A DNA stretch of 64,000 bases from Hormiphora californensis. Its lineage: Eukaryota > Animalia > Ctenophora. The DNA lies in NCBI GenBank assembly GCA_020137815.1, contig CM035355.1, forward strand, positions 4,154,001 to 4,218,000. Direction: 5' to 3'. The position numbers and the translations under genes were made by a program. Each line of letters begins with the position of its first letter. Position 1 is the first letter of the stretch. Below, piece after piece: positions 1 through 43,383 of the stretch. The notes under the pieces were generated by a model. The model was not told where the DNA came from, made no database searches, and saw nothing but the letters and a program-made list of their open reading frames with translations.

Positions 1-660
1 TTAGCGATACTTTGTACAACATGACTGCGGCACCAATACTGTACACATGATATTGTCTTTACAAAGTGTCCTAACTCCAAACCCCACCGTATCTCTCTCC
101 TACCTTTCACAGAGTCGAATCTCTCTCCTACCTTTCACAGAGTCGAATCTCTCTCCTACCTTTCACAGTGTCTCACAGAGTCTCACAGTGTCTCACGGTA
201 TCTCACGGTATTCTAGAACCCTCTTCTATGCCTGTCTACATCTCCCATTTCTTAAGCTTCATCTCTCACAATGTTCGAGCAGCAGTAGCAAGAAGAACCT
301 CCAACTGATATATATATATTGCCTCGGACTGGGCACATTCCTCAAATACCTTTCACCCTGGGATGGCATGGAGAAAGGTGTTATTACCCCGCCCTGGCCT
401 CATATCACGTGTTTTAAAGTGTGCACGTGCATCTTGAACCTCAATAGTTACCAATGATAGGCTTGGGTAGTCTCCAAAATAGTTGAGACTGCTGTTGCAA
501 TTTTGGGGTTCGGTAAATCAATAACAAATCCTGCCGTACTAAAAAAAATCGATACAATGATATTCACAACCCAATATTTCCCACTCCTTCTTTATTTCAC
601 AACCCCTCATCCTTTGTTTCACAACTCCTCTTATATTTCACAACCTCTCCATTATTTCAG

Positions 661-2868
661 ACGTATTGGAGCAGTTTGTTGATGTCACATGTTACGAGAG
701 AGTGTGTCTGTACCTTATCAGTTGTGTCCCCTATGTGCCTGAGCCTGAGGACAAGACCCTTCTGAAGACTGCCCTGAACCTGTACCTGAAATTCGAGGTA
801 ATAAATTACCTTGCTCGAGCCTGTTTCACCACGCAAAAGTAAAGGAGGGTTAGGACATAACAAACATAACATAATGGGATTCATTCCCAATAGTATATAG
901 ATCGGTGGTTAATGTTACTAGCAAAACTGGGGCGATCGTACCGATCGCAAATCGAGGGGTCTGTTTTTCTCTCTGCCTGTCTGCTATATGCTATGTGATG
1001 TGATCCCTCTCTTTTTCTCTCTTTCTCTCCCTTTTATACATGTGATGTGACCCCTCAAGTCGCAAGCAGTTCTCAACACGTGTGATACGTGATACCTACG
1101 AATCACGTCGTCACACTGACGGATCATGTCGTCACGCTGACGGATCACGTCGTCACATTGACGGATCACGTCGTCACATTGACGATAGGGTATCACATTT
1201 CCGTGCAAATTTGCATTAGATATAGTTAGATAGACGCACTTTGAATAATGTATCAGGGTCGGGGTCCTGTTGTAGACAGATGTGGTATATAATATATCAG
1301 TGTAACTCGACAGGATTATTAGCATATTCCAGCATATTGGTGACTTATCATACGGTATTTCCCCCTGTTATTGACTCATATTATAATGAACATAATATTG
1401 AACATATTCCTTCTCTGCCTTCCCGTTCTCTCCCCAGAGTCTCTCTCGGTGTCTCCCCAGAGTCTCTCGGTGCCTCTCAAAGTTCAAGTTTTTCCACGTG
1501 TACAATATATTAGTTAGCCACGATCCCGCCAAGATAAGAATATGATTCATTGTGAGATCTTGAAAAAGGGGGCAAATAATGAAGAAAAAAACCAGGAACA
1601 ATGTTCATTTTAGCAGAGAGTACATCTCAAATCATGATCACCTTTTTATCTCATCTCATTCTCTAACTGTTGTGATACTCGGTACAAGGCACCGGGCACA
1701 TGCATGCTCATAATATGGTGATTCTCTCTCTCGATGACCCAGTATTGTGCACTTTAATTAATGAATATATTCCTGATGTCTGCAACATTCCTCAACCCCA
1801 TTCACCATCTCAAATTGAGTACCCTCAGAGAATAAATTGAGAGAATCCAGATAAAACTAAGGAGAGTCAGACTCTCACCCTCATCGCTGTTCTCCAAGTG
1901 GGTGGAAGTACCGCGGAAGTACAGACACACACAACCTCACTCTCACCCCTCTTTCTCCCTCTCTAACTCTCACCCTCACTCTCACCACCTCTCTCTCCCT
2001 CTCTAACTCTCACCACTCTCTCTCACCCCCAGGTGTATCCCTCTAGGCGTTGCGTTGTGCCATCCAGCTGAACGATATGGATCTAGTTCAGGATGTATTC
2101 TCAACTTGTAAAGACCCCGCCTGTACAGAAGCAGATGGCGTTCATGCTCGGTCGACAGGTGAGACAAGAATTTAGTAATCTGCGAGTGAGAGCAAAATTA
2201 TCTGACTTCTCTTTTTTCATTTGTGATTCTTTATCATTTGCACTTTTTAGATGCTCAGCTGTTAAAAGTTTCATTCTCCTTATCGCTAATTCATCTCCTT
2301 ATCTCCACTTCCTCCTCCTCCTCCGTCTCTCTCATCCCTTCCTCTCTCTCTCTTACCCCCTTCCTCTCTCTCTCTCTCTCACACTCTCTCTTTCTCAGCA
2401 AATCTTCCTGGATTTGGATGAGGGCCAATTCCCTGAGGCTGAGGAGCTGACCGAGATAATGAGTAACGTGCACCTGAACACCAACTTCCAGTCTCTTGCC
2501 CGAGAGTTGGACATCATGGAACCCAAGGTAGGTTTGGTAACGAAATAACCCCCTCACTTGCCAGCGCGCGAAGGGGTTATTTCGTAGGTAGGTTGGGAGG
2601 CCCGCTGGTGATTTCGAAAGATCTTCTTTTTCTGAGTATGGTAGACTGGGATATTCTTCTCTTGAGTTCCTGCATAAACGATCCATGATTTTATATTTTC
2701 TGGGCGGATATATAACGAGGTGTAGGAAGTGTAGGTGTTTCTCTTCTTTTTTGACGAACTTTATCGAATCCAATTCAGCATATTCAGCAGCAGGCAGCTT
2801 GAGCACAATACATATATCATGACCCGAAAAGATGAGCATATATAATATCCCATACCACAAACGATAGG

Positions 2869-2917
<49 letters not shown>

Positions 2918-3059
2918 GTCTCTATCTCTCTCTCTCTCTATCTCTCTCTCTCTCTTTCTCTCTCTGCCTCATCAGGCAAACAGCTTGACCAACTGCTGCT
3001 GACGAATACCAACCGGTGTTGGTGGTTAGAACTGTGAGATGTGTCAGGAAGTTATAGAT

Positions 3060-3135
<76 letters not shown>

Positions 3136-3494
3136 CGGAAGAAAAGGAAAAGGAGATATGCGCACACATATATAGAGAGAGAGAGAGAGAACAAAGGCCA
3201 TTATGGGTTGGTTTTCTAAGAAAGATTCATGATCGGTGAGAATTGATGAATCTTTGCGGACTGCTATACAGGATATAAGATTTACACAGCTGCAGGCAAA
3301 AAACTTCTGAGTCTGAGGCTAAATTCAATCCAATTTTAGGTTCCTGAGGATATCTACAAGTCACATCTAGAAAATGTGAGGAGTTATGGACCTAGCAATG
3401 TTGATTCTGCAAGACAAAACCTTGCTGCTTCCTTTGTCAACGGGTATGAAATTATTGTCCTCTCCCTTTATCTCTCTCTCCCTCTCTCTCTCCC

Positions 3495-3555
<61 letters not shown>

Positions 3556-3598
3556 TTCTTTCTCTCTCTCTCTCTCCTCTCTCTCTCTATTTCTTTGT

Positions 3599-3679
<81 letters not shown>

Positions 3680-6600
3680 CTATCTCTCTCTCTCTCCATC
3701 CCTCCCTCTCTCCATCCCTCAGGTTTGTTAACTGTGCCTTTGGTAATGACAAGCTACTTGCGGAGAATGGTAACAAGTGGCTTTACAAGAACAAGGAGCA
3801 CGGTATGATGTCCGCTACAGCATCACTGGGTCTCATCCTGCTGTGGGATGTTGATGGTGGTCTTACTCAGATTGACAAGGTATGTTCAGACCAGCAACCG
3901 ACCGGAACCAATCAGAACTCGTTATTTAGGTCACGTGACTGGTTATCAGCCAATCAGGGACCAGTATTTCCTGATTCGGTCGGTTCCTGGTTCAGACTCA
4001 CCCGCAGCACTGCGGGCCAGGTGGGTTGGAATAGAGAGAACAGGTGCATCCCTTATCTCACATTCTCTCTCCCTCTCCGTATAATATGCGGGGTATTAGG
4101 GCTGGTTATTGGCTTTTCTGTAGAACGCGATGAGGCAAAAGCTGCATAAACTTTATCGAGTAAAACTTTATGACTGGAGCATACACATATCCATTTCATT
4201 TCTTTGTGTAACAAACCTATAGTTTAGGAATATATTCGATAGAAATGTTCGATAACCCTTTTCCCCTCCCCATTCCACACATTCTACATTACTTCTCCCG
4301 ACTCCCATTCCATTAAAACGTGTAACCCCCTCTCCAGAGGCCCCACTTGTAACCTACCCATCTCTCCAGTAGATCTAACTTCCTCATTTTTCCAGTACCT
4401 CCAATCCAAACAACCTACATTACTTCTCCCATTCCATTATAACATATAACCCCACCCCTCTCCAGTATCTAACTCCCTCCTTTTTCAGTACCTCTACTCC
4501 TCGGAAGACTACATCAAGTGTGGAGCCCTTCTCGCGTGTGGTATTGTCAACTCAGGTGTCAGAAACGAGTGTGATCCCGCCCTGGCCCTGCTCGCTGACT
4601 ACGTCCTCCACCAGTCCAATAACATGAGGATTGGAAGTATTGTGGGGCTGGGTCTGGCATACGCTGGGTCTAACCGGGAGGATGTTATTGAGCTGTTGTT
4701 GCCCGTTCTGACCGATAGTAATAGTTCTATGGAGGTCATTGGACAGACAGCTCTGGCACTTGGTAAGAGAGTCTTGAAGAATTGTGGAACTGAAGACTAC
4801 CAATTCGCTTCTTTTTCCTAGCACCATTGCCCCAATCCCCTAAAACATATATCTCCAGCAGATCTCCTCTACAATCTATTATAATCCCCTTCTCTCTCCC
4901 TCCCCATCTCTCCCAAACCCCCAATATTTCATCTACCTCTCCCCCTCAGCATCTCTCCCGACCCCCTATATTTCATCTACCTCTCCCCCTCAGCATCTCT
5001 CCCAACCCCCTATATTTCATCTACCTCTCCCCCTCAGCATCTCTCCCGACCCCCTATATTTCATCTACCTCTCCCCCTCAGCATCTCTCCCACCCCCCCA
5101 TATCTCCTCTACCTCTCCCCCTCAGCATCTCTCCCAACCCCCTATATTTCATCTACCTCTCCCCCTCAGCATCTCTCCCGACCCCCTATATTTCATCTAC
5201 CTCTCCCCCTCAGCATCTCTCCCACCCCCCCCCCCCCATATCTCCTCTACCTCTCCCCCTCAGCATCTCTCCCAACCCCCTATATTTCCTCTACCTCTCC
5301 CTCTCAGCATCTCTCCCAATCTCCTTTCTCTCTCCCAGGTATGGTTGCCATTGCTAGCTCTCACTTACTTTCTCCCTCCCAGGTATGGTTGCCATTGCTA
5401 GCTCTCATGGTGACGTCACGTCTACCATCCTCCAAACTATGATGGATAAATCAGAGTCTGAGTTGAAGGATACTCATTGCAAGTTCCTGGCCCTTGGTCT
5501 TGCTCTCACATACCTTGGAAAACAGGTTAGTTGTACACCGCTGTTGCCATACTACATGTACTATAACATCGCGCCCGGTTCAAAGAGGGTAGTCTTTTGT
5601 GTGAAAATACCGCTGATGGTCTTTCCATGTCAGTTGATAATTATTATTGACTTAGTTTGTATATCATTACATCATCATTCAAAATTCCACAGGAAGAAGC
5701 AGCTTTGACCATTGAGGCACTGAAAGTCGTTGGAGATCCCCTTGGAAAATGGCCGCTACACTAGTAGAGGTAATATGAGGGGAGAAGTGCAGTTCTATAT
5801 CTAGGAAAAATGAACCTCACCAGTCGACCGCCCGAATCTGAAATTATCCCATCTCCTAACTATCTCTATATTAACCCTCTTCATCTCCTAACCATCTCTC
5901 TACTTTGTAGGTGGTTGCATATGCTGGTACAGGTGACGTGCTAAAGATCCAGAAAATGCTTCACCTGTGTTCAGAGCACCACGAGATAACCAAGGAGGAT
6001 GTTAAGAAGGGTGACAAGGCTGCCAAAGCGGAGGCAGATGCGAAGAAACTCGAGGCTGAGAGTGGTAGGTTTTTAGCAGGGTGCTTTTAGTTCTTCATCC
6101 TCTAATTATTAATTCTAATCCCATTACTGACTCTCTACTAATACTGCTACAGTCCTCTCAACTCCACCGTATATCCCCTTTTATTACCTATTATTACCTG
6201 TCAGGTATTGCCCAACAAATGGTGGCTGTGATTGGTATTGCACTGATTGCAATGGCTGAGGAGTTAGGAGCGGAAATGGCACTGCGATCATATTCAAACC
6301 TTCTCAGGTACACCTTTTTTATATGTTCTAGCCCTTGTACGGGGCACGGTAAAGCTGCACACCACTCTAAACTCCCTTGTTACACACCTCAACTCCCTTG
6401 TTACACACCTCAACTCCCTTGTTACACACCTCAACTCCCTTGTTACACACCTCAACTCCCTTGTTACACACCTCAACTCCCTTGTTACACACCTCAACTC
6501 CCTTGTTACACACCTCAACTCCCTTGTTACACACCTCAACTCCCTTGTTACACACCTCAACTCCCTTGTTACACACCTCAACTCCCTTGTTACACACCTC

Positions 6601-9600
6601 AACTCCCTTGTTACACACCTCAACTCCCTTGTTACACACCTCAACTCCCTTGTTACACACCTCAACTCCCTTGTTACACACCTCAACTCCCTTGTTACAC
6701 ACCTCAACTCCCTTGTTACACACCTCAACTCCCTTGTTACACACCTCAACTCCCTTGTTACACACCTCAACTCCCTTGTTACACACCTCAACTCCCTTGT
6801 TACACACCTCAACTCCCTTGTTACACACCTCAACTCCCTTGTTACACACCTCAACTCCCTTGTTACACACCTCAACTCCTTCCCTCCAGGTACGGTGAAC
6901 CCAGTATCAGAAGGGCAGTTCCCCTCGCTCTGGCTATCCTCTCTGCTAGTAATCCCAAGCTGGATATCATTGATACACTCTCCAAACTCTCTCACGACTC
7001 TGACTCCGAGGTAAAATTATTAAAATTCTCTGATCTTGTACCGTCCAAAACTTAGAATGCTCCAAAACATGTGTTGCATGTGTTGCTTAGAAACATGTGT
7101 TGCTGAACTTAGAATGTCCTGTGCACAGTGGCCTTTTTCATGGGAGTAGGTGGTCATTAACGAAAAAATTTTTATGAGCTTATCTGGTAGCTTTTTTGAC
7201 GTAGAATCCAATGCACCCCAACTTATGCCTTGATTTTTTGAGGAAAGTGGTGTTTTTCCAAAAAGAAGGGTAATTGAAAAATTTTCGAAAAAATTTTTAT
7301 GAGCTTATCTGGTAGCTTTTTTGACGTAGAATCAAATGCACCCCTCACTCATGCCTTAATTTTTTGAGGAAAGTGGTGTTTTTCCAAAAAGAAGGGTGAT
7401 TGAAAAATTTTCGAAAAATTTTTATGAGCTTATCTTGTAGCTTTTTTGACGTAGAATCAAATGCACCCCTCACTCATGCCTTGATTTTTTGAGGAAAGTG
7501 GTGTTTTTTCAGTTTTTAGTCTTTTTAGGCTTCTTTGACAACCATACTTTAAATTTAGCTGGAGCAGGTGAAATGGGGATCCATAACAATTTAAATGTGG
7601 TTGATAGTAAGAAATCGAACAAATTTATATATCATTCAAAAATTTTTATTCAAACTTCATCCAGGGCGTTTTTATGGTCAAAAAACGAAGAACACTTGAT
7701 TTTTCGACCATAATATACAATAGTACGCACTTGAAACCTTTTTTATCTGAAAGGCCAGACAATTTCCTATCTTTTGGTCTATAGGGCATCGATGAGGTTC
7801 GATGAGGAGGCTGGGGAGAAAGCGTTAAAGAAGGCGTGTTTGTTTACTTTAAAAAAACGATCTTTCAAAAGTTTGAGACCTAACTAAACACGTTTTCCGA
7901 CCTTATTTTACACGTAGAATCGATTGCCGATAGAATTAGGACTCTAATATTGAAGGAAAACGGTGAAAACGCGTTTTTTTTCGTCTTTTTGTGGCCCTTT
8001 TTTCTCCCCAGCCTCCTCATCGAATCTCATCGATGCCCTATAGACCAAAAGATAGGAAATTGTCTGGCCTTTCAGATAAAAAAGGTTTCAAGTGCGTACT
8101 ATTGTATATTATGGTCGAAAAATCAAGTGTTCTTCGTTTTTTGACCATAAAAACGCCCTGGATGAAGTTTGAATAAAAATTTTTGAATGATATATAAATT
8201 TGTTCGATTTCTTACTATCAACCACATTTAAATTGTTATGGATCCCCATTTCACCTGCTCCAGCTAAATTTAAAGTATGGTTGTCAAAGAAGCCTAAAAA
8301 GACTAAAAACTGAAAAAACACCACTTTCCTCAAAAAATCAAGGCATGAGTGAGGGGTGCATTTGATTCTACGTCAAAAAAGCTACAAGATAAGCTCATAA
8401 AAAAATTTTCGAAAATTTTTCAATTACCCTTATTTTTGGAAAAATACCACTTTCCTCAAAAATTCAAGGCATGAGTGAGGGGTGCATTTGATTCTACGTC
8501 AAAAAAGCTACCAGATAAACTCAAAAAAAATTTTTCGAAAATTTTTCAATTACCCTTCTTTTTGGAAAAACACCACTTTCCTCAAAAAATTAAGGCATGA
8601 GTGAGGGGTGCATTGGATTCTACGCTCGAAAAGCTACCAGATAGGTGCAAAAAATAATTTTCGTAAAATTCTTAGTGACCACCAAAAGGCCACTGTGCTG
8701 TGAATGTACCAAATCACTAATTTGTGAACTTAGAATAGAAAATTGTATAAAGAGCAGCGGTCTCCCACGATATAATCAGAGAGATTAATGTGAATTCGTA
8801 TAATCGTTACTTTCCGTGGTTTTTGTAGCCGTATAATTAACGTTAAACTGTCATTAATATATGAATTAATTATTTCTTAGAAAATGAATATTATCTCTAA
8901 CTCCCTCCCTCTTCCAGGTTGCTCACAACGCTATCTTCGCGATGGGTATAGTCGGATCAGGAACCAATAATGCTCGCCTGGCTAACATGCTACGTCTTCT
9001 GGCCCAGTACTACCACAAAGACGCCAACAACCTGTTCATGGTCAGACTGGCACAGGGTTTGGTACATTTGGGTAAGGGTACCCTGACCCTGAGCCCCTAT
9101 CACTCCGATAAGATGCTGATGAGTCGGGTCGCTGTTGGTGGGTTGCTGGGTGCTGTTATTGCTTTCATGGATGTCAACACTCTGATTCTGGGTAAGTGGT
9201 GTTCAGGAACCGACCTCCACAAGTAAACAACCAATTAGAACTCGTTATTTAGGTCACGTGACTGGTTATCAGCCAATCAAGGACCAGTATTTCCTGATTC
9301 GGTCGGTTTCTGGTGGTGTTTATCATTGTTCAACTGTGATAATTGATTAGAAGTTGGTGGTGAGAGAATCAATTTCCAAGCTCATGTTGTAGCAATATCT
9401 TACTCCCCCCTCTCCCACTCTCTCAGGCAAGTCTCACTACATGCTATACCACCTCGTATCTGCCATCCAGCCTCGTATGTTGGTCACATTCAACGAAGAC
9501 CTCAAACCCCTCCCTGTTCCCGTTCGAGTTGGCCAGGCGGTTGATGTCGTTGGACAGGCCGGAAAACCCAAAACCATCACTGGATTCCAAACCCACACCA

Positions 9601-9719
9601 CCCCTGTCCTGTTGGCCCACGGAGAGAGAGCGGAACTAGGCACTAACGAGTATAACCCTCTCACACCCGTTATGGAGGGTTTTGTTATTCTGAGGAAGAA
9701 CGAGGAGATGGACGAATAG
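661..9719 (+). CDS. PSMD2: 26S proteasome non-ATPase regulatory subunit 2 (Rpn1), 5'-partial, multi-exon. Exons 661-797, 2033-2158, 2399-2527, 3340-3443, 3723-3879, 4489-4762, 5383-5525, 5693-5769, 5911-6064, 6205-6307, 6890-7010, 8918-9191, 9427-9719
   Basis: GT-AG bounded exons translate to recognisable Rpn1 segments ([112 protein letters not shown]). Stop TAG at 9717-9719. Two exons carry apparent indels (see findings). Confidence 0.96.
3892..3989 (+). mobile_element. hAT-like ~110-bp MITE family, copy 1
   Basis: TIR CAG(G/C)AACCGACCG...CGGTCGGTTCCTG; 8-bp TSD GTTCAGAC (3884-3891, 3990-3997). Confidence 0.9.
4905..5320. repeat. Intronic minisatellite, ~9 x 44 bp, pyrimidine-rich
   Basis: Unit TATTTCATCTACCTCTCCCCCTCAGCATCTCTCCC(G/A)ACCCCCTA, period 44 (4925, 4969, 5013...). 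Confidence 0.92.
6370..6873. repeat. Intronic minisatellite, 24 x 21 bp (AACTCCCTTGTTACACACCTC)
   Basis: Perfect tandem copies read directly; ends 16 nt before the PSMD2 exon at 6890. Confidence 0.97.
7124..8697. mobile_element. Non-autonomous foldback DNA transposon, Transib-like (CACAGTG termini, 5-bp TSD), in a PSMD2 intron
   Basis: Starts CACAGTGGCCTTTT and ends AAAAGGCCACTGTG. TSD CTGTG at 7119-7123 and 8698-8702. Arms ~700 bp (7124-7821 vs 8001-8697), each with about three ~125-bp subrepeats; ~180-bp spacer; no transposase ORF. Confidence 0.85.
9204..9312 (+). mobile_element. hAT-like MITE, copy 2
   Basis: Same family; TSD GTGGTGTT (9196-9203, 9313-9320). Confidence 0.9.
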
Positions 9720-10534: not shown

Positions 10535-17238
<6,704 letters not shown>

Positions 17239-18152: not shown

Positions 18153-18168
18153 ATGACAGTGTCTATAT

Positions 18169-18277
18169 CAGGAATCGACCGAAACAAGTAAACAACCAAT
18201 CAGAACACGTTATTTAGGTCACGTGACTGGTTATCAGCCAATCAGCGACCAGTATTTCCTGATTCGGTCGGTTCCTG
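18169..18277 (+). mobile_element. hAT-like MITE, copy 3
   Basis: Same family; TSD GTCTATAT (18161-18168, 18278-18285). Confidence 0.9.
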
Positions 18278-18340
18278 GTCTATATGAACCTTAAAACGGG
18301 CTTTCAAAAAACATAAACAACAATAAAACTGGGATCCAGG

Positions 18341-23038: not shown

Positions 23039-26000
23039 TGTATGAGAGGGTATAATAAAGAGGGATACTATTCTCTGGGTATGGGCCAGGAAAGCTATCC
23101 GAGTGACAATATATGTTGGATCATTATCATCGTACATAAAGAATTAAAGAGTTAGGTAGCGAGCTATGGGTGAATTTTTGCTACGGCCACAATCACTGTG
23201 TTACTGTAAGCTGTTACCCCACTCACCCATATCAGAGTCCTCTGAATCAGACAGTGCTACCCCTCGGAGCCCCATATCGTGTAGATTAGTGGGAGGGGGA
23301 TGACCCCACAGGTATATACCCTCAGTGTCTGTAACAGCTACCGTATACGTCTCGCAACACGCCACGTACTGAAGGGAGGTGATCATTAATAAAGGGCTCG
23401 AAATACTGAATATATTCATGCCTTAGTGACCACATGCAGTGAAGAATTCCTATATATTCGAATAATATTCAGATTCTGAGGGATGCAAAAGAATAGCGAT
23501 CCTTAGTCATTACCCCCGGGGTAGACCTCCCTTTAGCCTTTCCTCCGCCGATTCTTACCCCAAGTAGACCCCCCTCATTGTCCTCTCTCCCAACCCTCCA
23601 CCTATGCTGACCTCGGGTAAACCCCCTTCCACTCCCTCCCCTGGTCCTTCCTTTTCCTCCCTCCCTCCCTCCGTGTCCTCCCATCCCTCCATCTCTACTT
23701 ACCCTTGTGCGATGTGATTCCATGTTACTAGCCAGATTATCATAAGTAAAGGACCTCACACCCAACTGGCCACTTTTATTATTCCCAAACGAGTAGATCT
23801 GACCCGTGTCTACCACCACTGAACTGTGGTATTTACCAACTGATACCTCAACAACTCGCTTACTACCAATGGCCTTGACGGCAGTGGGTACGTTCACACT
23901 CTCAACTGTCGTCTCTTCTTTCTGCATTGGGAGGAAAGGAGAACTAAATATAAACGTTAGGGGTATATATGAGATACTGTCATCAGCTGTTCTTTCTGTT
24001 TGGAGGGGAAAGGAGAGGGTTTGAGGTACATTTGAAATTCTGAAAGGTGTGTCGATCGAGGTATAGAGAGTGATTCATAAATCATTTGGACGATCAGAGA
24101 GAAGCTTCAGACTTACACTGTTATAAAATAGGGCCTTCATGGTCAGCAGAAACCCTTTCCGTTTGTTCAGACCCAGCTTGTTATACTTGTTGCTGAAAAA
24201 TGAAACATTAGAATGTGATGGAACAATCAATGATATCATAAGATTAGAATATGATGGAGTATAATAACAGTAACGATCTGTACAGAGTATTCTAGTGATG
24301 AATCACACTTCTAGTATTACTTCCCTGTTTAACACAGTGCATCATGCATGATGGCATCATGGTCTTCATTGCTTTGGAGACGTAGATTTATTGTAGATAC
24401 CCTCCCTCCCTCTTACCTTCCCCTCCCCATATATCTCCAAATATATCTCTCTACTTCCCCTTCTCTCCCCAAATATCTCTCCTCTCAGGGCCCTCTCTCT
24501 CGGTTCATGAACACTCTACTAGGCAGGAATTTGAAGGGGCGAGGATCTCAAGTGATGTCATTAACATGCATCAATTACCATGGCACCCCCTCTCTCTTCA
24601 GCTCCTAGTTGACAAATACACTTGAAGAGTATCAAAGATATATATATAGATATTGTAGAAAGTAATATATATCTCCCTTTTATTGAGGATCCAGCCCGGG
24701 GCAGCCGCTTACTTCCCACACCCCCCTGACAACTAGAGAGAGGTACAATGCCACAAGCACCCTCTCCCACTCTCCCAAAACAATTTACTGTACCTGCCAC
24801 AAGCATAGAGAGTACCATCCTCTGTAAGGAAGACTGTTCCATCAAACCCACAAACTACCTTCTTGAGGCATATCCATTCTTCCATGAATGTAACCGGTGT
24901 GGGTAACAACCTGAATCAAGGGAAAATAACAGTTAGCGGGGATATAATAGTCCCAAATAATTCATCCTAAATCTCTCTCTTGAGCTGAAGTACCCAGTAC
25001 CGATACCTTACCTATCAATGCTAGATCCATGTCCCAGTTTCCCAGTATCCCCAGTACCCCAAGTGAACACTGCCCCACCCTTGGTAAGAAGTGCTGCGTG
25101 AGACGACCCACAGCTGACCGCCACTACGTCCGTAGACAGCATGCTCTCACACATCCGGGGTTTCAGGACGTCCTCAGTCGCATCCGCTTGTGCTGGGGGG
25201 AGGGGATTAGAATTAGAGGATCAGAGGTTGTGCTGAGGGAAGGGGATTAGAATTAGAGAATTAGAGGTTGTGCTGAAGGGAGGGGATTAGAATTAGACGA
25301 TCAGAGGTTGTATTGACTGTCATACAACAAGCCCGTGTTTTTGCTGTTGCTACGACCGTTGTAACGAGGGTAGTCTTATTATAACGAGACAATGCTATGG
25401 GCTGCATTTCACATGCTCTGTGAATGCGGCGAATTATAGAACTCCGGATAGCCGCTCCGGATTTGAGGATTTAGGAATGAATGAGCGATTGAAGCAGACA
25501 TTCAATGAATGACCAACCAGAGTTTTAAAAGTCCGTTCATTTTGCCATGCAAAAACACCGGATATACTGTCATTCAGAATTTAAAATCTCTGGGAAAATG
25601 ACGAGTTTATCAGGAAAAATAAAGAGATGGAGAGGACGACAAGATAAATTAACCAGATCACAACCACACGACCCTATAATAATTACCTAAGCATCTAGAA
25701 CTCGCTGATCCACATGACAGAAGAAGACCGTTATCGGTAACAAAGAGAGTGTAGCCATTACCACACGCCACGGATGATATAAACTTGCCGTGTAGGGTAT
25801 CAACACTGCAGAATAATTAGTTAGTTAATTAAATAAATATTTAGTTAATTATAGTTAGTTAGTTTGCATTTCTCACTTAATAACTATTAACTGTTAACTA
25901 GTTACCATGGTGACCAATAACTCCACCTACCATTGTGGTGTGTTGGTAGAGTTCCTATTTCCATGTCCCAGCTGCCCGTGAGAGCCCTCTCCCCAACTGT

Positions 26001-26508
26001 AGGTCGAGTGTAGCTCGGTACTCGCCACCACGTGGTTACGGCCAATGGAAACCTGTAATACAGAGAGTAACTGTTACTAACAGTTACTGATATGGTTACT
26101 AACAGTTACTAATAGTTACTAATAGTTACTAACAGCTATAAGAATGGGAGGGAAACATTCTAAAAATTCTGCACAACTACCTACCATTCTAATAACATAC
26201 ACAAAACAATGGCGGTTTATTGGTTTACCGTTCTAACAGTTACTAAAACAGGGTGGGGTGGTGAACTATTTGAGAGTCTGAGAGAAACTACCTACCGTTC
26301 TAATGATGCATGTAAGAGGAAGGTCAATAGGACACAGACAAAACAGGGAGGTATCTAGATAGTAGATCATGCTCCGGATCACTTCCTGTCTCTCGGCCCT
26401 TTCCTCTCTATGACGGTAAAACTGAACCAACCCTAGGACCTGGAGAGATGGAGGGTAGTTGACAAGTTATGGGTGGCTGGAGCTGTCAGACCAATGCTCT
26501 GACAGGGC

Positions 26509-26541
<33 letters not shown>

Positions 26542-27795
26542 AGAGTGGAATTGGAAGGTAATTTGTAAATGAAATAGGGCTACTATCAAGAAAAGGGCAG
26601 CAGCTCCTACCAACCTGATTGAGGACGATATCAATGGAAGGTCTCTTTTCTGGATCAGTGGTAAGAAGCACATCTACCACCTCCCTAAGGTGGGAACTGT
26701 AGCTACCACACACCGGCTTAAACTGACCCTAAGAGAGAGAGGGGAAGAAGGGGTGTTATGTGGGGGCCCTGAGAGAGAGGGGAAGAAACTGGGTGTCATG
26801 TGGAGGCCCTGAGAGAGAGGGGAAGAAGGGGTGTTATGTGGGGGCCCTGAGAGAGAGGGGAAGAAACTGGGTGTCATGTGGAGAAACACATCTTAGTCAT
26901 GATCAGAGCTGTCCTGATGACCTATCCGAAAAAAACCCCGAAATTACTTGGGTGGTTACCTTGATGATTTTGTTGGCCAGGGCAGGCAGGTTTGATCCTT
27001 CAAAAGCTTTCTCCCTGTTACACATCTCGTAGAGCACACAACCAAGGGCCCAAACATCACTTTTAGGTCCATACTGCTTCCCCTCACACTGCGTGACACA
27101 TGGTTATTATTTAAACGAGAGAGATCTTCTTATCACAATATTATAAAGCAGCTAATCTTAGATTGTTAGTGCCGGGGAGACCAATAGTTCTACTCTTGGG
27201 GGGGGGGGGTGATATATCCAATGTAATGTCACACGAATCCCAATGTATGGGTAGATAACAGAACACCTACCATTTCTGGTGATATATAGTAGGGTGTGCC
27301 AAGAACAGTAGACGCCCCTTTAGTTTCAATAATCTTTGAAATTCCAAAATCACCCAATTTCACCATATCATTCTTTGTCAGGAAAATGTTTGCTGTCTTC
27401 AGATCCCTGATAGGTAATTTATCTTAGTTTACTGAAAAGTAGCCCCTAATGATTCTTGTCAAGTTTTTCAAAGTTTCAAACTATAGTTGATGAAACAAGT
27501 TCATTTGGCGTGCTTTGCCTCGTTTCAGCTTCTGTTTACAGGCCTTTTCCCAAGATGAGGCAAGTAGCCTCAAACAGAGAGTGTTACCTGTGCAGGACAT
27601 TGTGATCATGTAGATGCTTACATGCCTCCAACATCTGCCTAAACATGTCCAATACCCGGTATTCAGGAATTGCCTGACTCTGGCTGGCCAACATTTGGGC
27701 TAACGTCCTGAGAAGAGTGGTTAATAATTGACTGTCAGATCTGCAATTATCTTGTTGAGATATGATCAGTTGATCGAGGGTATGAGTCTGAGTCT

Positions 27796-27860
<65 letters not shown>

Positions 27861-27984
27861 CATCTTAGCATGCTTCAGTCTGGGAGAGTGATAAATGTGT
27901 GTGATGGAGCAATAAAATGTGTATACAGTGCTGAATGCTAATATCATTAGCCATCCTTTGATGTTCATTATCCTAATATCTACT

Positions 27985-28080
<96 letters not shown>

Positions 28081-28245
28081 TCTATCTCTCTCTCTCTCTC
28101 TCTCTATCTCTTCTCTCTCTCTCGTCTCTCTCTCTTCTCTGTCTCTCCTCTCTCTCTCTTGCTCTCTCTCTTCTCCTCTCTCTCTCTCTCTCTCCCTCTC
28201 TCTCTCACACCTCTCACCTCTCTCTCTCTCTCTCTCTCTCCCTAC

Positions 28246-28283
<38 letters not shown>

Positions 28284-28450
28284 ACTCTCTTCCTCTCTCT
28301 CTCTCCCTTACCCTCCATCCGCATACTCCATTTCAATCATCAGAGTGCCATCCTCCTCGAAGCTATCGTAATAGGAGATAATGTTGGGGTGGTGCAACAT
28401 ACCAAGGACTCTCACCTGAGGGAGATGGAGGGGAGAGAGAGAGAGGGAGA

Positions 28451-28532
<82 letters not shown>

Positions 28533-30025
28533 GACAGAGAGACAGAGAGAAACATGTGGGCGAGTAGAGACTGAAAAAAGCCAACAGAGCATGTAATACG
28601 GCAATTAATTGGACCCCCACCAAGACCGAGAAACACAGCTGAGAGCTGCAATGAGCTCCATATAGATCTCTATCTGCCTATTATATCAGGGGGGGGATAA
28701 GGTGGAAAATACAGTAAACTGTCTAGAGCTTTAGTTAAGATGAAACGATATTAAACTAGACCGTGGAACACAATTATATTTGCCCCCCCCCCCCCTTTAA
28801 ATGGATTTCCCGGCCACCCAAATTGCATGAGTCAGTATTGGGCTTCTGAAGTTCAGTGGTACAGAAAATATGATCCTGAATCGTTGAACCAAAACAAAGA
28901 TCGAATGAGACACTGTTCATAGAGAATGTATTGCCATGAGAAGAATTACCCTCCTTCATCATGGGACCTAGGAAAATCTTTGGTATCGAAGACACCTCAC
29001 ACTCTGTTTAGTACATATAACAGAATTAACATAATTAAATTATATCTGGTATCAGGTCACGTACCAGGTCACGTACTAGGGTAAAACTGGTACATGTACC
29101 TACACCACGTACCTCGTTTAGCGCTAACTGCCGTTCAGTATAACTCAGATCATGCATGTTTATTTCCTTGAGTATAACAAGAGAATCGTCATCCTTTTTC
29201 CTGTACAACACAGCCGTTCCATAGGCTCCTTTCCCAACAGTCCTGATCTGAAGAAGACAATTAATTAATTAATATTGGGGATTGATTAGAAGATAATTAA
29301 TTAATTAATTAATTAATATTGGGGATTATCAAGAGGAAAGTTTTGAAGGAAGCTGGAAGGGCGGGGTCAAGTTCTCAAGAATCAGCATCAGAAAATTGTT
29401 AGGTCTCAGTGTAAAGCATAACAAGTAAAAAAGTAACACGCAAAACTTGTACATGCAGCAGCACACGTGTAACACACACAATTAAACACATTGTAACACA
29501 CCAGGAACCGACCGAAACAGGTAAACAACCAATCAGAGCTCGTTATTTAGGTCACGTGACTAGTTATCAGCCAATCAGGGACCAGTATTTCCTGATTCGG
29601 TCGGTCGGTTCCTGTAACACACACCTTCTCAAACTCCGCGAGGGTTGGCTGGAACACTCGTGCACTAGATGGTGCAGAACTGGATTCTAGCTCACTGGCC
29701 TTGAAGTACATCTCGTTGGACCTAAAATAAGAGTGTTTTAAACAGAGCTACCTTGAATCGGTCCCTCATTCCATGAAAACTTGGTTACGAAGTCACCCCT
29801 GTTATTATTATATTGCAATATACATATTGAGCTTTTGCGGAGGGCCAGGGGTAACCCAAAACCCAAAAGACAACTGAAGATCTTTAACTATACTTACAGT
29901 CCCGATTCCTCTTCAGTAAAGCTGGGCCAGGCTGATAAGTGAACTGAGCTCAGGGCATCCTGTATCGACTGAATTAGGACCTGACCTTCACTGTTCTTGA
30001 CTAGCGACGTAGCGACGATGTCCAT
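18437..30025 (-). CDS. NIMA-related kinase, NEK8/NEK9-like: kinase domain, RCC1 repeats, low-complexity region, coiled coil, C-terminal CaaX. About 25 exons; internal boundaries partly approximate
   Basis: Minus-strand exons: 29247-29113 IRTVGKGAYGTAVLY..VILKEIN, 28415-28312 HHPNIISYYDSFEEDGTLMIEMEYADGG, 27707-27588 ..HNVLHR, 27406-27271 DLKTANIFL..KLGDFGISK..GTPYYISPEM, 27088-26960 KSDVWALGCVLYEM. RCC1-like exons include YSWGEGSHGQLGHG (~25960), VACGNGYTLFVT (~25750) and VSVGKYHSSVVVDTGQIYSFGNNKSGQLG (~23800). Last exon 18664-18437 ends SSVCTVM*. The start ATG at 30025 is inferred from a phase-compatible first exon. Confidence 0.9.
19595..20373. mobile_element. MITE with TA TSD (IS630/Tc1/mariner-type target) in a NEK intron
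   Basis: TA+GGGTAAACCGGGGCAA ... TTGCCCCGGTTTACCC+TA. The motif CCGGGGCAATT(CGAACA) recurs about 8 times internally on both strands. Confidence 0.85.
20446..20468 (+). mobile_element. 23-bp solo derivative CTGTTAGGCCAATGCTTTGCCAG
   Basis: Perfect 8-bp TSD GCTATTAT (20438-20445, 20469-20476). Confidence 0.72.
26483..26505 (+). mobile_element. 23-bp solo derivative CTGTCAGACCAATGCTCTGACAG
   Basis: Perfect 8-bp TSD GGCTGGAG (26475-26482, 26506-26513). Confidence 0.75.
27989..28306. repeat. (CT)n/(GA)n microsatellite; representative of many such tracts (e.g. 2871-2960, 3068-3131, 3470-3700, 21683-21763, 43263-43380, 54760-54970)
   Basis: Direct reading; these tracts generate the SLSLSL/ERERER ORFs. 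Confidence 0.97.
29502..29614 (+). mobile_element. hAT-like MITE, copy 4
   Basis: Same family; TSD TAACACAC (29494-29501, 29615-29622). Confidence 0.9.
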
Positions 30026-31796: not shown

Positions 31797-34700
31797 ATGA
31801 CTGAATTAGTTTCTGAAACTGATAACACCTTCTATCTCACTGATGTTGTGACCACCAAGGATGGCAAAACAGGTACTTTCATTCGTTAGAGAGAGAAATA
31901 GAGAGAGAAATAGAGAGAGAAATAGAGAGAGAAATAGAGAGAGAAATAGAGAGAAATAGATGTTTTTTCCTCTTTTACTCCCTCTATGTCTTACCCCTTC
32001 CCCTCTCCCCCCTCCCCCCCCCCCCTCAGGTGTGATTATTGAGATGCCTGATTCTGACTCTGAAGAGGAGGAAGATGATGATGAGAAATCTACCGATAGT
32101 CCCCCGACTGGATCTGCCTGGGTCTCTTGGTATCCTGATGGTAAGTAAAACTTGTGTCTTCTGACAAACTGTAACTGTCATGTTGGTATCATCAGGGTGT
32201 CTCCGGGCCAAAGTTGTTAACAGTTAGTGTTGTTAAAATCTCAGTTTATATTTGTATTTTCTCAGGTGAGGAAGCAATGATATCCCAGACCGATCTTGAC
32301 CTGAAGAGTAGGGTCATGGAGCCGGGAATGGGGGTCCACAGAACCGGGGATCTGCGAAATGGGGCACTTCTTGATATCAGTGCAAACTGTACTGTCAGAT
32401 TGGTCGGTACCAACACCGTCCTCTCTAATGTTCCTGGTTCTATTCTAACTAATTGGAATGTAAGTTTGGTCGGGAGGGGTGCAGCAGCTCTTAAAAAATG
32501 ATACATTTATCAGATCACCCCTCCCCCCCCCCCCACTCAGTTCCATAGACATTAGCTAGCTAACATTTGAGATTATAGTTATTTGTTTTTGACACTAACT
32601 CCATTCTTCTCTCAGCTACACTACAATGAGCCCAATGTGGTCCTGGGAAATTGGCTGGGATACATCCTTCAGCTGCAACAATCCCTGGTCGTGGGCCTCA
32701 AGAATGGGGCTACGTTGAGGATGAACTTTGAAACTGCCCGACATATGGAGGATAGCAAGTTCTCGGAACTCAGCCCATACTTTAGTGGGACCTGGTAAGT
32801 GGTCAGCAAGTTAGTTGGGTTCGTCATAACCCATCTTTTTCCCACTCTTCCGCTCACTCTTTCTCCAAATCTTTCTTTCTCTCACTCTTTCTGCCACTCT
32901 GACGCTTTCCTTCTCTCACTCTTTCTCTCACTCGAAAATGAGCAGTTATTGGGGTTATTATTCAACTCACATTTTCTAGGTACGTTGGTCAGCGGTTAGA
33001 GGGGAGAGCCCAGTGGTTTAAAAGAGCAACCCTGATATCTGGAACCATGCCAGTTTTCAAGAGCATGAAACAGAAGGTCAAGGGAGTCGTGCTTGAGGTG
33101 AATTTAGTACAGCTGATAATGTGCTTTGTACTGTTCAGAGTGTTTGGTTATTGTCTGTTTGTTAGTTTGTGAGTGACTGAGTACTGCTATTTAGTTGTTT
33201 CACTAATTCAGGCGACCCTGACGGGTATTGAGGTTGAGTGGATTCTGTGTGGACTAATGACTAAAGATCGCAAGGAGAAAGAGGAAGGTCCGCCTGCACT
33301 GATCAAAGGAGAAAACCTCAAAAAGTAAGGGAACTGTTGCCATGTTCCTTTCTCTCTCTTTCTCTTTACCTCTTTTATCAGATTTTTATCTGATTCTGAT
33401 TTCTTAGGAAATGCACTCACAAATTGGAAACAGCTACTACCAAAGAATTTACATTCAACATCTGAATTATTCCCATCTCTACATTATCCAATATATTGCT
33501 ATTAATTGATAATTAATTAATTAGCTTTTACCAACGAATTATCTCCCTAGGATCCGTGTTTTTGATAGGCATCAGGAGAGATTCCTTAGTATTGGACTCC
33601 CTGCCCTACTCTCTGTCCCACCCGGCTACACCTACGAGGTATGAATTAGGGCCCAATATTATATTATGAGGGCATTAGAGATATATGTACTATTCCTCCG
33701 AACGGCTTTTTGCTTCGTTCTGAGGAACAGAAAGTTGGGTGGGTTCTAAGGAACCTTTTGTAATATGATTGATCTTCCTTCGTGCGATATCTCAAGATAT
33801 ATCTCTCTTTCTCTTTTCGTGTGTTCCCCGGAATTGTGCGTTGAGTAGAAAGACACATCGGAGGGCGGAGTTGAACCTATGAAATCATATAATTCGTCAT
33901 AACAAAATCGCTAAAATATAATCAAAGTAGAGACAACACCCCTAAATTCATATTATAGGGGCTGGTAGCGACTCTAGAGAAGAGTGGCGGTGTAATGCCC
34001 GAGATTGAGACCCCTGCCTGGCCAGAGGTTGCTAGCCACACTTGTCCACGATCTAACCCAGGTAACTTATTGTTAGCTCGCTAAGGAACAGTTTACAGGT
34101 AATCAACATGATACAAGAAAAGTATTGTTCTGCTATCAATCCTGTTTGCTATCAATCTTTGTTGATCAGATAAATGAAAGCTAATGAATTAATTATATTT
34201 TGTTGCAGTTACACCTGGAAGCCAAGACGAGGAAGCAGACAAACCAACAGACGAATTATCAGACGAAATGGAAAATGATGAACCAATTACCGATAACCAA
34301 GATACAGATAACCAAGATACAGATAAGCCAGATACAGATAAACAGACAGTAAAGGAAAGTAATGACAACAGTGAAACAGAACTCAGTAACCATGGTAACG
34401 ATGGTAACGATGGTACTGAGAGTCAGCCAGATGAAATGAACCGCCAGGATGAATCGAGTGAAAACCAACAGGATGCAACCGATGGAACAGAGGCAACAGA
34501 AAACACAGAAGGAACAGAAAACACAGAAGGAACAGAGGCAACAGATGGAACAGAAGGGGAACAGGAACAGTCGCCTTTAGACATTCCACCTGCTGGAGAT
34601 GGGGTGGAGTGGTCTGTTGTTGAGATAATAGAGGAGGGGTATGTTGCAGAACAGTCAGCCGTCACTAGCGATAAAAGTAATATTTGGGGGGTGTTGGTTA

Positions 34701-35707
34701 TTTTTTATATATAATACTTGCTAGTCATGCTTCTTATACCGGAGTGCGAAGGTACTACTACATATTATACAGTTATCTTTCTCTGCCTTGCTCGAACTTG
34801 CCTTGCTCAACCCTCCATTACAAATTTAACTTTCTTTCCAACATAACATCCCTTTCTCTACTGCCCCTATATCACACAACCCCTCCTAGTTCACTCTAGA
34901 TTACTAATAAAGTCCTTTCTCTGCTGCCCCTAACCCTATACCCTCCTCCCTCCCCCAGCTGACTCTGATACTGATAGCGGAGAGGACAGCAGTGGAGATG
35001 AGAGTGATAGTGGGCTGGATGATAGCATTGAGAAGAGTAACTCAGGTAACACACCTCACTCTTTCCAACAGCCCTTTCTCTCCTCGATCCTCTCTTACAC
35101 CTCCCCACACCCCAGGTAACTCTCCAGCAGCCGCTGGTGGTGAGACAGCATCCTCAGTTCCTGTTTGGTATGGGAGAAGGAGAAAGAGTAAAAAGGGTGC
35201 TTCTAATGCTAGCGGGTAGGTGTCGTTGACATACCAAGTTTCAAACTCCCCGACTCCTTCCTGGCCCTCTCGATCATAACTTCACTCATGTAACTTCCTG
35301 GCCCCTGCCCAAAATCTGGGAAAATCTTCTAAATCCCTGCATTTTCAGTTGGTGTTCCAAGATAACTCCGAAGGGTCCGATTGAGATTGGTGGACAGTAC
35401 CTGGTGGAGGTGGTCAGTGCAGACTACACCGGCAGGGTAAGAGTTGGGAGAAGTTGGGTACAGAGTGCCCACCGCCCAGTTGGAGTAGTGGTACGATTGA
35501 AGTTGGGTACAGGGTGAGAGATTGGGAGGGGAGGGACGGAGGGTTTCCAGTTGTAGGTAGCAAATTGGGGCTATGATATATCTGTAAACTTATCATTGAG
35601 TGTTTATGTGGCCGAGTCTTGGAGCGTCTTTTTCCACACCTGAAATTTGTCTACTGCTGTTTTTCTTGCTTACACATTAACCGATACAGGAGAGAGACAA
35701 AGAAAGG

Positions 35708-35785
<78 letters not shown>

Positions 35786-38700
35786 CAGTGAAATGTGAGA
35801 TAGATGGGAAGGAAGGAAGGTGAGCTGATTATGTAAGCCCGATTTCACGCTCGTTATCACCGCCGCTGCTAATTGTAATGACGAATGAGTAACAGTGCAA
35901 CAAGACGTGATCACACACACAGTGTGTCTCCTTGTTAACTCACTAAACACTTTGTTTGTTTTGTGTCAAACACAGACACTACCCAACTAAAAAGTGTGTT
36001 GTGAGTTAACAAGAACTGGTCTTGGTCGTCAACATTAACTTATAGCAAATTCCGCTAAACATGACTCTCCCAACAGGTTCTCTGCCCACTAAACCCCCCT
36101 AAACATGACCCGCTTCCCCTAATTACCCCCTAATTACCACTAATTACTCTCCAGGTCCTCTGGGAGGATAGTGAGATAGAGAGGGTACCCTGTACTCAAC
36201 TAAACCAGATAGACCATCTAGACGACCATGCACACCTACCAGGGTACTTTGTGAACCGGATAGGGGAATCTGATAGGCTGGCAGTTGTTACCAAGTATAG
36301 CTCCCACGCTAGGACTTGTAATGTCTTCTGGATGGATACTGAGATGGTGAGTCAGGGGTAGCAGAGCCGGGGTATTACGTGGTCAATGTAGAGGGTCTGA
36401 CCGTAGTGAGTTTAGAGTGTAGAGATCATAGTTTTTAGATTCGTTACTACCGATATAATATGTACTACCAATTCTGGGGTTGAAATATGAGTTACTTTTT
36501 AGGGGTGGAAATATTTTGGGGGGGGGGAGGGGGAGGGGTGGCGGCCACAATAAATAAACCTGTAATAAATTAAATATAAAGTATAGTCAATTAACCTATC
36601 TGGTATAACTGCTCATCCATGTTGCCTTCCCCTCTCATTCTACCCCGATGCCCTCTGATAGAGATTGTTATTGAACGTACCATGGCGAAGGGTTGGAAAT
36701 ATTGTATTTTATTCTCATTTATTCTTACTCTCTCTCTCTCTAGGCTGAGAACGATGTGAGCGTCTACTCGCTAGAGTACAATAAAAAGTACGATTTCAAC
36801 CCGATGGATATTATACTAAGTTTGGTAGAGTGTTCTCACAGTTCCATTGGGCAGGTCATTACCATCACTAATACTGGCAAGGTGAGACAAGGGTTTTTTC
36901 TGCAACTTCTCCGTTGGTATCACTGTGACAAGGGGGATTAGAAGGTTATACCCAGCTAGTATGTAGATACTTACCTTGTTCGACCCTCTCTCTCCGTGCT
37001 CCGGGGATTAGAACACAACAAGTAGCCATGATACATACCACTAGACCTAATTTTATCTTGTTCAGACTATAGCAACAACAATAGTACCGCACGGCCCAAA
37101 AAAAACTAAGGGTACGTTGGCCTTCTTTTCTCCTACAAATTTAATTTCAATCACTCTGATATTTTGTCACAATATTTGTATGGTTACTCATTCGAGGAAT
37201 CCGGAGTTTCAGCCCTCTGGATGAAAATTCATTTTTTTCGCCCGCATGAACATTTAATGAACGCCAAAACGGGACCATATTTTGGTACCAGAGTTTTACA
37301 AATTTGTTTGGCTATCGATTTTCTTTCGAACGCGACCAGTTTGACCTTAATTGGATAACCACAAGAATCACAGTGACCAGTCTAGGTTGGGTGATGTGAT
37401 CCCCATAAAATTATGACGTGTTAGCAAGAGAACTTACATTCTAACGGACGCGTATCGGTATACCGTCCTAATTAGCAGATGTGATACGTGATACGCGACC
37501 GTTACACCTGCTGATTGGCACTTAGTAATGACGCTAGCGGTCCAATAGGGGTCACTTGACCAGACCTAGTGTCGGAAAAGTGGCCACTGTGTCTCTTTTG
37601 GTGGTCCAATTGAGCTAAAATTAGTCGCGTTTGAAAGGAAATCGTTACCCAAAGGCGACTGTGAAATTCCGGTTTGGAATACCTTATTTGTTTTCAAGTT
37701 CATTTAGGATTCATTCCAGTTGTAAAAAATGAATTTTTAGATAGAGGGCCGAAATTCTAGCTAACATCAATATCGATCAAGTGTTATGGCCATACGAATT
37801 TTTAGCGCCTGAATTTACCAATTTCTCGTCAAAACGGGTTAAAATCGATGTTTGGTAAAAATGACCGTTTTTTAAGGCCAGAGGGGGGGGGGTCGACGGG
37901 TTTTTTGGGGTGTTTTTTGAGGTATACGTTATATGAAAGCGCTGGGCAAGGCGAATCGATTAGAACTGATGCCATCGATGTTGCGCACACCGTTTGGCAA
38001 AAATTTGGGGGTTAACATTTGGCCTATAATGGATGTTAACCCCTATAAATCAGGATTGGTGGGGTCTAGAACATCCATCATTGTACCAAAGGCTTCGTCT
38101 TGTCTTGATACAACTTCCTGAAAAGTTTTATGTCGTTACTCCAACTACTTCTTGATTTTTTGGGGGTTTACAAAATATGCGGAAAAAGCCCTTTTTGCCT
38201 CTAATTTTGCTCTTTTTTGGGACATCCTGCCTAACTTCCTGAGATAACGGCTAGGACTCAGACCTTGCCGTTTGGCATAGTTGTTCTAGAGACCGTGTTC
38301 TTCAAATTTGGTGTAGCGATTTTTGATTAAGGCCCCCGTTCAAAATTTATAGGGGTTTACATAAAATTTTCATGGACAAAACAAATGTTAACCCCTATAA
38401 TTTTTGAACGGGGGCCTTAATCAAAAATCGCTACACCAAATTTGAAGAACACGGTCTCTAGAACAACTATGCCAAACGGCAAGGTCTGAGTCCTAGCCGT
38501 TATCTCAGGAAGTTAGGCAGGATGTCCCAAAAAAGAGCAAAATTAGAGGCAAAAAGGGCTTTTTCCGCATATTTTGTAAACCCCCAAAAAATCAAGAAGT
38601 AGGAGTAACGACATAAAACTTTTCAGGAAGTTGTATCAAGACAAGACGAAGCCTTTGGTACAATGATGGATGTTCTAGACCCCACCAATCCTGATTTATA

Positions 38701-41700: not shown

Positions 41701-43295
41701 GAGGTCCTGGTTGATGCCTTGGAAGATCAACCTGAGGATGAATCAGGGGAGAATAATGGAGAGGGAGGGGAGAATGAAGTGGCATCCATGGATCAGGGAA
41801 CCCAATCAGAGGGATCGGAGCAGGAAATGTATCCGGTGAGTAGCGATGGTAACTATAGTAACTATGATTACTTTGCATTGGTTGCTATGGTAACCACGAT
41901 ACCAACTGGTTATATGTTAACTGGAGTGAGTGAGAACAGTAGGGATCTTTTTGAAATATCGTCTGTACAATTGAAAATAACCTCACTGATACCTCCTCCT
42001 CGCAGTATGATACTTTGCTGAAACGATGCAAAGATCAGGATGACCAGGAAGGATCCAGTACAACAGGTAACCATGGTAACCAGGAAGGATCCAGTACAAC
42101 AGGTAACCATGGTAACCAGGAAGGATCCAGTACAACAGGTAACCATGGTAACCAGGAAGGATCCAGTACAACAGGTAACCATGGTAACCATGGTAACCAG
42201 GAGGTATCCAGTGTAGCAGGGGAACAGCAAGATCCTACAACCGGAGAGGGGGAAGGCACCACTACAACTCCTAAAAGAGAGGATCAAGATACCACTACAG
42301 CTACCACTGCAGAGAATCAAGGTACCACAGCTACCACAGTAGTCAAAGAAGACCAACCTCTCCCTGTGGAAGCTGAGGCAGTGCTGACCGCACTTCAACA
42401 GGGACATATCGTTGAGTTTCGAGGTCCCCCTGTTACACCTGAGACGAACCAATCAGATTCAACAACGGTATGTTGTGGTAATTAGTATAGACAAGGGGTT
42501 CCTTAGCTGGTAGAATCTTTTGAAGGACTGCTCGCGACTTTCCTTTCCTTACGCCGCATTTGTTACCTTTTACTAGTGGTATTTTTCTATTACTGATCTT
42601 TTTACCCCCCCCCCCTCCCCCGCTTGTTGAGTAAGGGGTGAGAGAGGCCTTCTCCACCACTCAACAACTCCCCACTGTTTTCAGAGGTCACCAAGGAAGA
42701 GATTCCGTAACAGGAGGGGCAGCAGTGTAGGTTCAGCCAGTGGTCAGAGTCAGCCAGAGTTCTGTGAACCTCAAGAGGTGACAGATACCGTTCTGGAGCA
42801 CACTAAGATAATCAGGTAATATATACCACGTGACTTCATGACGTCACATGTTGTCATGACGACGTGACGTCATGATTCACATGTTGTCATGACGACGTGA
42901 CGTCATGACGATATGACGTCACCCTTTTTAGAAGCACATTTATATTGTAGATCTATGAACAAGTTATTCCTACCTTCACCTATTTCTAATTACTCTGAAC
43001 ACTATTATGTCGAAACACAATGAACCTTCCTGTTCCCCTATAATCCCTCCTTTCAAACACAGAGGGGCGCGAATTCTTCCTGTTTTTTGGCCCCCCGAAA
43101 TCAGCCCAATTGTCACTCTCATCCTGGCCTCTCCCGCTATTGGTCTTGATACACATGCTCTGTGGAGCTGGCACGTGACATGTTGTTTTGTGAGACAATG
43201 ATATTGTAGCCTTGGGCGCCCGGATATGCTCGGATGGGAAATGGGTAGAGAAAGAGGGCCAGGAGAGAGAGAGAGAGAGAGAGAGAGGGATAGAG

Positions 43296-43383
<88 letters not shown>

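Follow-up and report, generated by a model that had tools for sequence, protein, structure and literature searches.

A polymorphic foldback element with unequal CACAGTG ends in a ctenophore intron, likely mobilised by a Transib transposase

The closest described relatives of the element reported here are the Transib transposons, whose DDE transposase is related to RAG1. In the accessible part of the 2005 description (Kapitonov and Jurka, 2005; PMC1131882), a 5-bp target duplication sets Transib apart, as of that year, among the superfamilies of DNA transposons; five families have ends resembling RSS12 and RSS23, targets have C first and G last (CASTG or CAWTG), and hairpin intermediates are predicted. 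Tao 2022 (PMC9435367) reported six Transib-like proteins in ctenophores and a Subgroup I of Transibs, all of which have asymmetric ends and lie nearer to RAG1L, and whose features include the alpha11-alpha12 region of the transposase and a CTT1 tail. From the order of the legend and the unequal ends, we infer that the MleTransib and PbaTransib elements of that paper belong to Subgroup I. In the portion of the paper and its supplement that was available, the complete end pairs (3/3) are long at 5′ and short at 3′ and differ by 10 bp; CTGTC flanks PbaTransib_0868, and MplTransib_1482 has subterminal tandem repeats.

The RAG1L-RAG2L (RAGL) transposons PflRAGL-A, AanRAGL and ProtoRAG are similar to our element in their CAC ends, 5-bp duplication and bipartite unequal ends, but they carry RAG1L and RAG2L, and their ends differ in length by 10, 9 and 4 bp, respectively (PMC10462144, PMC9435367, PMC8289069; accessible parts). 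There is debate over the origin of the 12/23 rule, which either arrived with RAG2 or existed earlier in a RAG1-like transposase acting alone (PMC8355894, PMC10462144). As far as the accessible text of these papers goes, RAG1 alone has no 12/23 preference (PMC8355894), ProtoRAG activity needs its unequal ends (PMC8289069), and asymmetric ends have been proposed to be ancestral (PMC10462144). With 12/23-like Transib ends (PMC1131882, 2005) and asymmetric ctenophore Transibs (PMC9435367, 2022) already in print, as given in the parts of these papers at hand, the concept is not new.

We analysed a stretch of 64,000 nucleotides from Hormiphora californensis (the window), in which a non-coding foldback element of 1574 bp (7124-8697, 35% GC) lies within an intron of PSMD2/RPN1 (Table 1). 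With unequal CACAGTG ends, a 5-bp target duplication and a polymorphic presence in this ctenophore intron, the element was likely mobilised in trans by a ctenophore Transib transposase. It appears to be a new non-autonomous member of the Transib type, with an 11-bp rather than a 10-bp asymmetry, and foldback arms, as features of its own. A literature search that took in few subscription papers and lay outside Repbase returned no report of the family or of a foldback non-autonomous Transib, and no assay of the activity of a ctenophore Transib; Repbase may already contain the family.

The host gene was recognised by tblastn of P0004, which gave exon matches at 6888-7013 and 8915-9196; taking away the element and one copy of its target duplication leaves an intron of 328 bp. 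The RPN1 exon is 95% identical to a Mnemiopsis leidyi protein and 91-95% identical to four further proteins. Other named matches are at most 85% identical among the 120 matches listed of 1172, and the first by E-value in these best 120 of 1172 is a moth protein that is 47% identical. In the RPN1 intron just upstream, a 21-bp unit is repeated perfectly in 24.3 tandem copies (window 6370-6879).

Table 1. Features of the element and its host intron, in window coordinates.
Feature	Position	Strand	Basis
Host intron of PSMD2/RPN1, GT..AG	7011..8917	+	Splice sites read from the sequence; tblastn of P0004
Left copy of the target duplication, CTGTG	7119..7123	+	The empty allele in run X10, which joins 7110 to 8696, has it once
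Long end: heptamer, GCCTTTT (7 bp), 11-bp insert (7138-7148), second box to end-positions 32-38	7124..7161	+	Insert found again in run X8 (loose end at 8683)
11-bp insert that makes the ends unequal	7138..7148	+	Arm alignment
Left subterminal array, 125-bp unit × 2.8	7161..7508	+	
Inner left arm, 409/412 columns identical to the inner right arm	7411..7821	+	
Central spacer, 179 bp, non-coding	7822..8000	.	
Inner right arm	8001..8313	-	
Right subterminal array, 126-bp unit × 2.8	8314..8670	-	
Short end: heptamer, GCCTTTT, second box to end-positions 21-27	8671..8697	-	
Right copy of the target duplication, CTGTG	8698..8702	+	

Both termini open with CACAGTG, at 7124 on the forward strand and at 8697 on the reverse strand, and thus with the CAC of Transib within an RSS-like heptamer. 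An earlier note on this DNA had described CACAGTG-GCCTTTT at each end, a 5-bp duplication of CTGTG, an 11-bp insert at the left end and a second box displaced by it, and we find all four: the terminal sequences are complementary at 14/14 positions, CTGTG stands on both sides, the insert reads TCATGGGAGTA in the arm alignment, and the GGTGGTCA box begins 18 bp past the heptamer on the left vs. 7 bp on the right. The left end is also without the 8 bp immediately inside the box, which goes beyond the earlier note. The 14-bp terminal match is not a product of chance, since the window holds 6 matches to the terminal 14-mer with at most 2 mismatches where 0.50 are expected, and 0/100 shuffles reach 6. 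Two of the six are exact and constitute the element ends; the remaining four form two mirrored pairs within another palindrome. At this site, the one insertion seen with both of its flanks, the duplication has the 5 bp characteristic of Transib, is present once in an empty allele (run X10, below), and begins with C and ends with G, as do the GC-rich targets of Transib.

Arms of about 700 bp each flank the central spacer, and each contains about 2.8 copies of the subterminal unit, which the earlier note had not mentioned. Identity between the arms rises inward, from 54/85 columns at 7124-7200 through 199/211 at 7201-7410 to 409/412 at 7411-7821, and arm identity is therefore unfit as an insertion clock. 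The earlier argument that near-identical arms make this a young insertion thus loses its clock but keeps its conclusion, which is carried instead by the coexistence of filled and empty alleles. The left tip of the element passes directly into inner-unit sequence, minus the 8 bp. Two contigs of run X8 show the long tip followed by a continuation of the right-end type, which suggests that the 8 bp were lost in this copy or in its lineage. Across the whole element, the longest stop-free frame is 87 aa, or 47 aa counted from a Met, and none of the five frames overlapping it matched a Pfam family. There are no RAG1L and RAG2L genes between the ends, an observation that is silent on a partner element.

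Four of the 19 public runs listed were examined, X1 and X5 from organism A and X8 and X10 from organism B; rows from marine metagenomes (shares 0.04-0.08) were left out of the evidence on copies and alleles. An X10 contig joins 7110 to 8696 with a single CTGTG and is a clean pre-insertion site. Run X1 contains both alleles, the filled one seen at its right junction (depth 8.25) and the empty one (6.51), in keeping with a heterozygote, and may be the source of the assembly itself. The one X5 contig displayed at the insertion site is empty. In the empty allele of organism A (X1 and X5), the 79 bases of window 7045-7123 are replaced by 23, which end in CCCTA where TCCTGTG is expected, so that the clean target is seen in organism B only; the CCCTA allele is either a separate haplotype or an excision footprint. 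Given that empty alleles exist and that one run holds filled and empty alleles together, the insertion is recent, with the element on some chromosomes and absent from others. This bears out the suggestion of recent activity in the lineage.

The insert had been open to the objection that it is private to this copy. However, an X8 contig carries the long end beside another flank, with 10/11 insert bases and 6/7 spacer bases alike, so that the insert is common to two organisms. The final insert bases precede the box in two more X8 contigs, and an X5 contig aligned from 7123 has a foreign flank. The inequality of about one helical turn that marks Subgroup I Transibs amounts to 11 bp here, and the long end recurs in X8 and X5. 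In the four runs, the central bins are 7-111 times as deep as the flanks, which indicates many copies of the family, although depth is not usable as a copy number. The left and right end bins are of similar depth (329/518, 7698/5732, 4348/5108 and 8059/10536), as would fit one long end for each short end, but these bins take in shared repeats, a further 105 loose ends lie beyond those displayed, and no contig spans an element.

We compared the ends by eye with the eight published ends of five ctenophore Transibs in the Tao 2022 supplement (PMC9435367), as far as it was available (MleTransib_2823, _6236 and _3931; PbaTransib_0868 and _8175). These elements come from the same phylum, share the CACAGTGG start, have one long and one short end, a second box ending in T-A-R-G in the same register, a G-rich insert in the long end, and a 5-bp duplication of the form CTGTN. 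All eight ends begin CACAGTGGG, and our element begins CACAGTGGC. T-A-R-G, which has a background rate of 0.005 per position, occupies end-positions 24-27 in 4/5 published short ends (25-28 in the fifth) and reads TAAG at 24-27 in the short end of the element; in the published long ends it lies at 34-37 or 35-38. The long end of the element resembles the 5′ end of MleTransib_2823 at 7/9 positions (G30 and C32-A33-T34-T35-A36-A37), and the 11-bp insert has A17, G19-G21 and G23 in common with MleTransib_3931 and PbaTransib_0868 at their 5′ ends. The box test is not foolproof: of the 13 other distinct CACAGTG sites in the window, one combines G8 with TAGG at 24-27 without being a terminus, and 4/13 have T-A-R at one of four positions tested. 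Unlike the published elements, which in the available supplement encode a transposase and have ends 10 bp apart, ours is non-coding and has an 11-bp difference between its ends, a box sequence unlike theirs, foldback arms of 700 bp, and subterminal arrays with a 125-bp unit. The assignment to Transib made in the earlier note is therefore supported by the CAC ends, by the 5-bp duplication with its empty site, and by this likeness to ctenophore Transib ends.

The second box had also been set against the RSS nonamer. Counting a spacer of 23 from the heptamer reaches TCATTAACG, which agrees with the nonamer at 5/9 positions, as previously counted, and a spacer of 12 reaches TCACTAAGA, which agrees at 4/9. 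By its letters, however, the second box does not qualify as an RSS nonamer, because positions 5-6 are T,A rather than A,A at both spacers, and the register that does give A,A (spacers 13 and 24) matches at just 2/9. The absolute values of 12 and 23 depend on where counting starts within the common stretch; the sequence fixes only the 11-bp difference. The ends thus resemble the vertebrate 12/23 RSS in the exact heptamer, in the 11-bp difference and in a conserved T-A-A that spacers of 12 and 23 place at positions 5-7 of the nonamer, but they differ in the low nonamer match, with T at position 5, and in being transposon ends with a target duplication. Similarly, the insect elements Transib5, Transib2_AG and TransibN1-N3_AG (PMC1131882, accessible part) have an RSS-like heptamer, a 5-bp GC-rich duplication, 12/23-like ends and non-autonomous members, but also an A-rich nonamer-like box, and ours is without a box of that kind. 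The A-rich nonamer of the 2005 insect consensus, with AA at positions 5-6, is not definitive of the ctenophore clade, since the published ctenophore Transib ends, as far as the supplement at hand shows them, are without such a nonamer too.

The structure might in principle be an assembly artefact or a local hairpin duplication that was never mobile, for which the near-identity of the inner arms and the lack of a contig across the whole stretch could be adduced. This is hardly credible in view of the difference between the tips, the duplicated target, the empty alleles, the filled right junction in X1, and a depth of the element far above that of its flanks in 4/4 runs examined. Long arms with subterminal repeats, such as these, are common in the Chapaev and EnSpm/CACTA groups, and a transposase of one of these other CAC-ended superfamilies might have moved the element if the 5-bp repeat arose partly by chance, given that the right end itself closes with CTGTG. 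The inverted repeat is in fact one base longer than the element (G7123/C8698), which allows a 3-bp TGT duplication to be read. That reading, however, produces GCAC ends, unlike the CAC-ended families, and Chapaev and EnSpm (CMC) elements duplicate 2-4 bp of target, whereas here 5 bp accompany CAC ends. We consider this origin improbable, in view also of the C-first, G-last targets reported for Transib (PMC1131882), the match of the ends to ctenophore Transibs, and the subterminal tandem repeats of MplTransib_1482 (each as given in the accessible part of its source). A RAGL transposon as mobiliser seems quite improbable. RAGL elements do have CAC ends, 5-bp duplications and ends that are 9-10 bp unequal (PMC10462144, PMC9435367), but Tao 2022 (PMC9435367) gives Transib proteins for ctenophores, and the part of its supplement at hand shows five Transibs and no RAGL under the heading. 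Moreover, an A-rich TR2 lies beside the RAGL heptamer (PMC10462144, accessible part), vs. the T-rich GCCTTTT here; PflRAGL-A also has a nonamer-like box.

A different alternative rivals the mechanism and not the family: the element would be mobilised by Transib, both ends would be read through T-A-R-G at 24-27, and the 11 bp would be a tolerated, inherited leftover without function. TAGG occupies 24-27 of the long end too, so that a reading in the short-end register is possible for both ends; positions 22-27 of an X8 copy are ATTAGG, as in PbaTransib_0868 and MleTransib_3931 at the 3′ end in the available supplement; and the indifference of RAG1 alone to 12/23 pairing (PMC8355894) points in the same direction. 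Yet the insert resembles the published 5′-end inserts, every complete published pair at hand (3/3) is unequal, ProtoRAG depends on unequal ends (PMC8289069), and the tips of our element are still unequal though its inner arms are nearly identical. We regard a functionless asymmetry as possible but doubtful. It is with similar reserve that we suggest that ctenophores carry a currently active, RAG2-free Transib which enforces a one-turn pairing of the 12/23 type, the 11-bp difference being kept in two organisms since only copies with one long and one short end could move. The persistence of unequal tips in two organisms, despite convergence of the inner arms, speaks for a requirement for an unequal pair, although a plain failure of conversion close to the tips would give an identical picture.

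As the most likely mechanism, we propose that a ctenophore Transib transposase acts in trans, binding one long, 5′-type end and one short, 3′-type end through the heptamer and the second box, which on the long end would lie more distant by one helical turn. Judging from family membership, it would cut at the CAC border and insert with a 5-bp stagger into a C-NNN-G target. The 700-bp arms could have arisen by copying of one subterminal region onto the other, with the outer tips spared, after which the left tip of this copy may have become joined to an inner repeat unit with the loss of 8 bp. A polymorphic, multi-copy family points to an enzyme that worked recently and offers many natural end pairs. 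The element is a useful substrate on which to test a RAG2-free rule of the 12/23 type. If such a pairing rule holds, the 12/23 rule would predate the capture of RAG2, in one of the earliest-branching animal lineages, and the foldback family, with arms homogenised nearly to the tips, would be a natural readout of its transposase.

The search for a partner transposase covered the window itself, where Pfam matched neither RAG1 nor any transposase family in 150 of the 272 complexity-filtered frames (from 455 frames of at least 55 aa). A scan for the end motif gave 0 loci in viral contigs, 2 in metagenomes, neither with a BLAST match to the window, and 5 in prokaryote genomes, where the motif alone or short AT-rich pieces matched. 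One metagenome locus reads as lying inside an aminoacylase-like coding stretch. We rejected all of these as chance, as there was no element beyond the motif.

Elsewhere in the window, a near-perfect palindrome of 2575 bp (37085-39659, 98.7%) with TA-CCG ends lies between UBE2O-like exons and is presumably a Tc1/mariner-type foldback. In each of its arms there is an older inverted repeat (66%), whose two CACAGTG sites point inward and are 9 bp unequal to a common CTAGGT, together with 11 bp that match the short end of the element at 7124-8697. It was rejected as a Transib relative, as the CACAGTG sites fall within the older inverted repeat, which overruns them on both sides, and there is no duplication. 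An element at about 62885-63730, with CAGTCGGACCCC ends, TA flanks, repeated subterminal motifs and an internal 320-bp palindrome, is one that we take to be a pogo/mariner-type MITE. A dispersed repeat of about 130 bp occurs in five copies that are 86-98% alike (3906-3991, 9203-9323, 18159-18288, 29502-29605 and 51083-51217), and its ends, which resemble short inverted repeats, suggest that it is likely a MITE or SINE-like family. According to Pfam, the host genes in 660-9716, 11206-16955, 23472-29268 and 32571-46693 are PSMD2/RPN1, a DEAD-box helicase that appears eIF4A-like on reading, an RCC1-repeat gene with a weak kinase match nearby, and a UBE2O-like gene. Finally, an inverted repeat pair of 189 bp, 88% complementary, spans 55757-56665.
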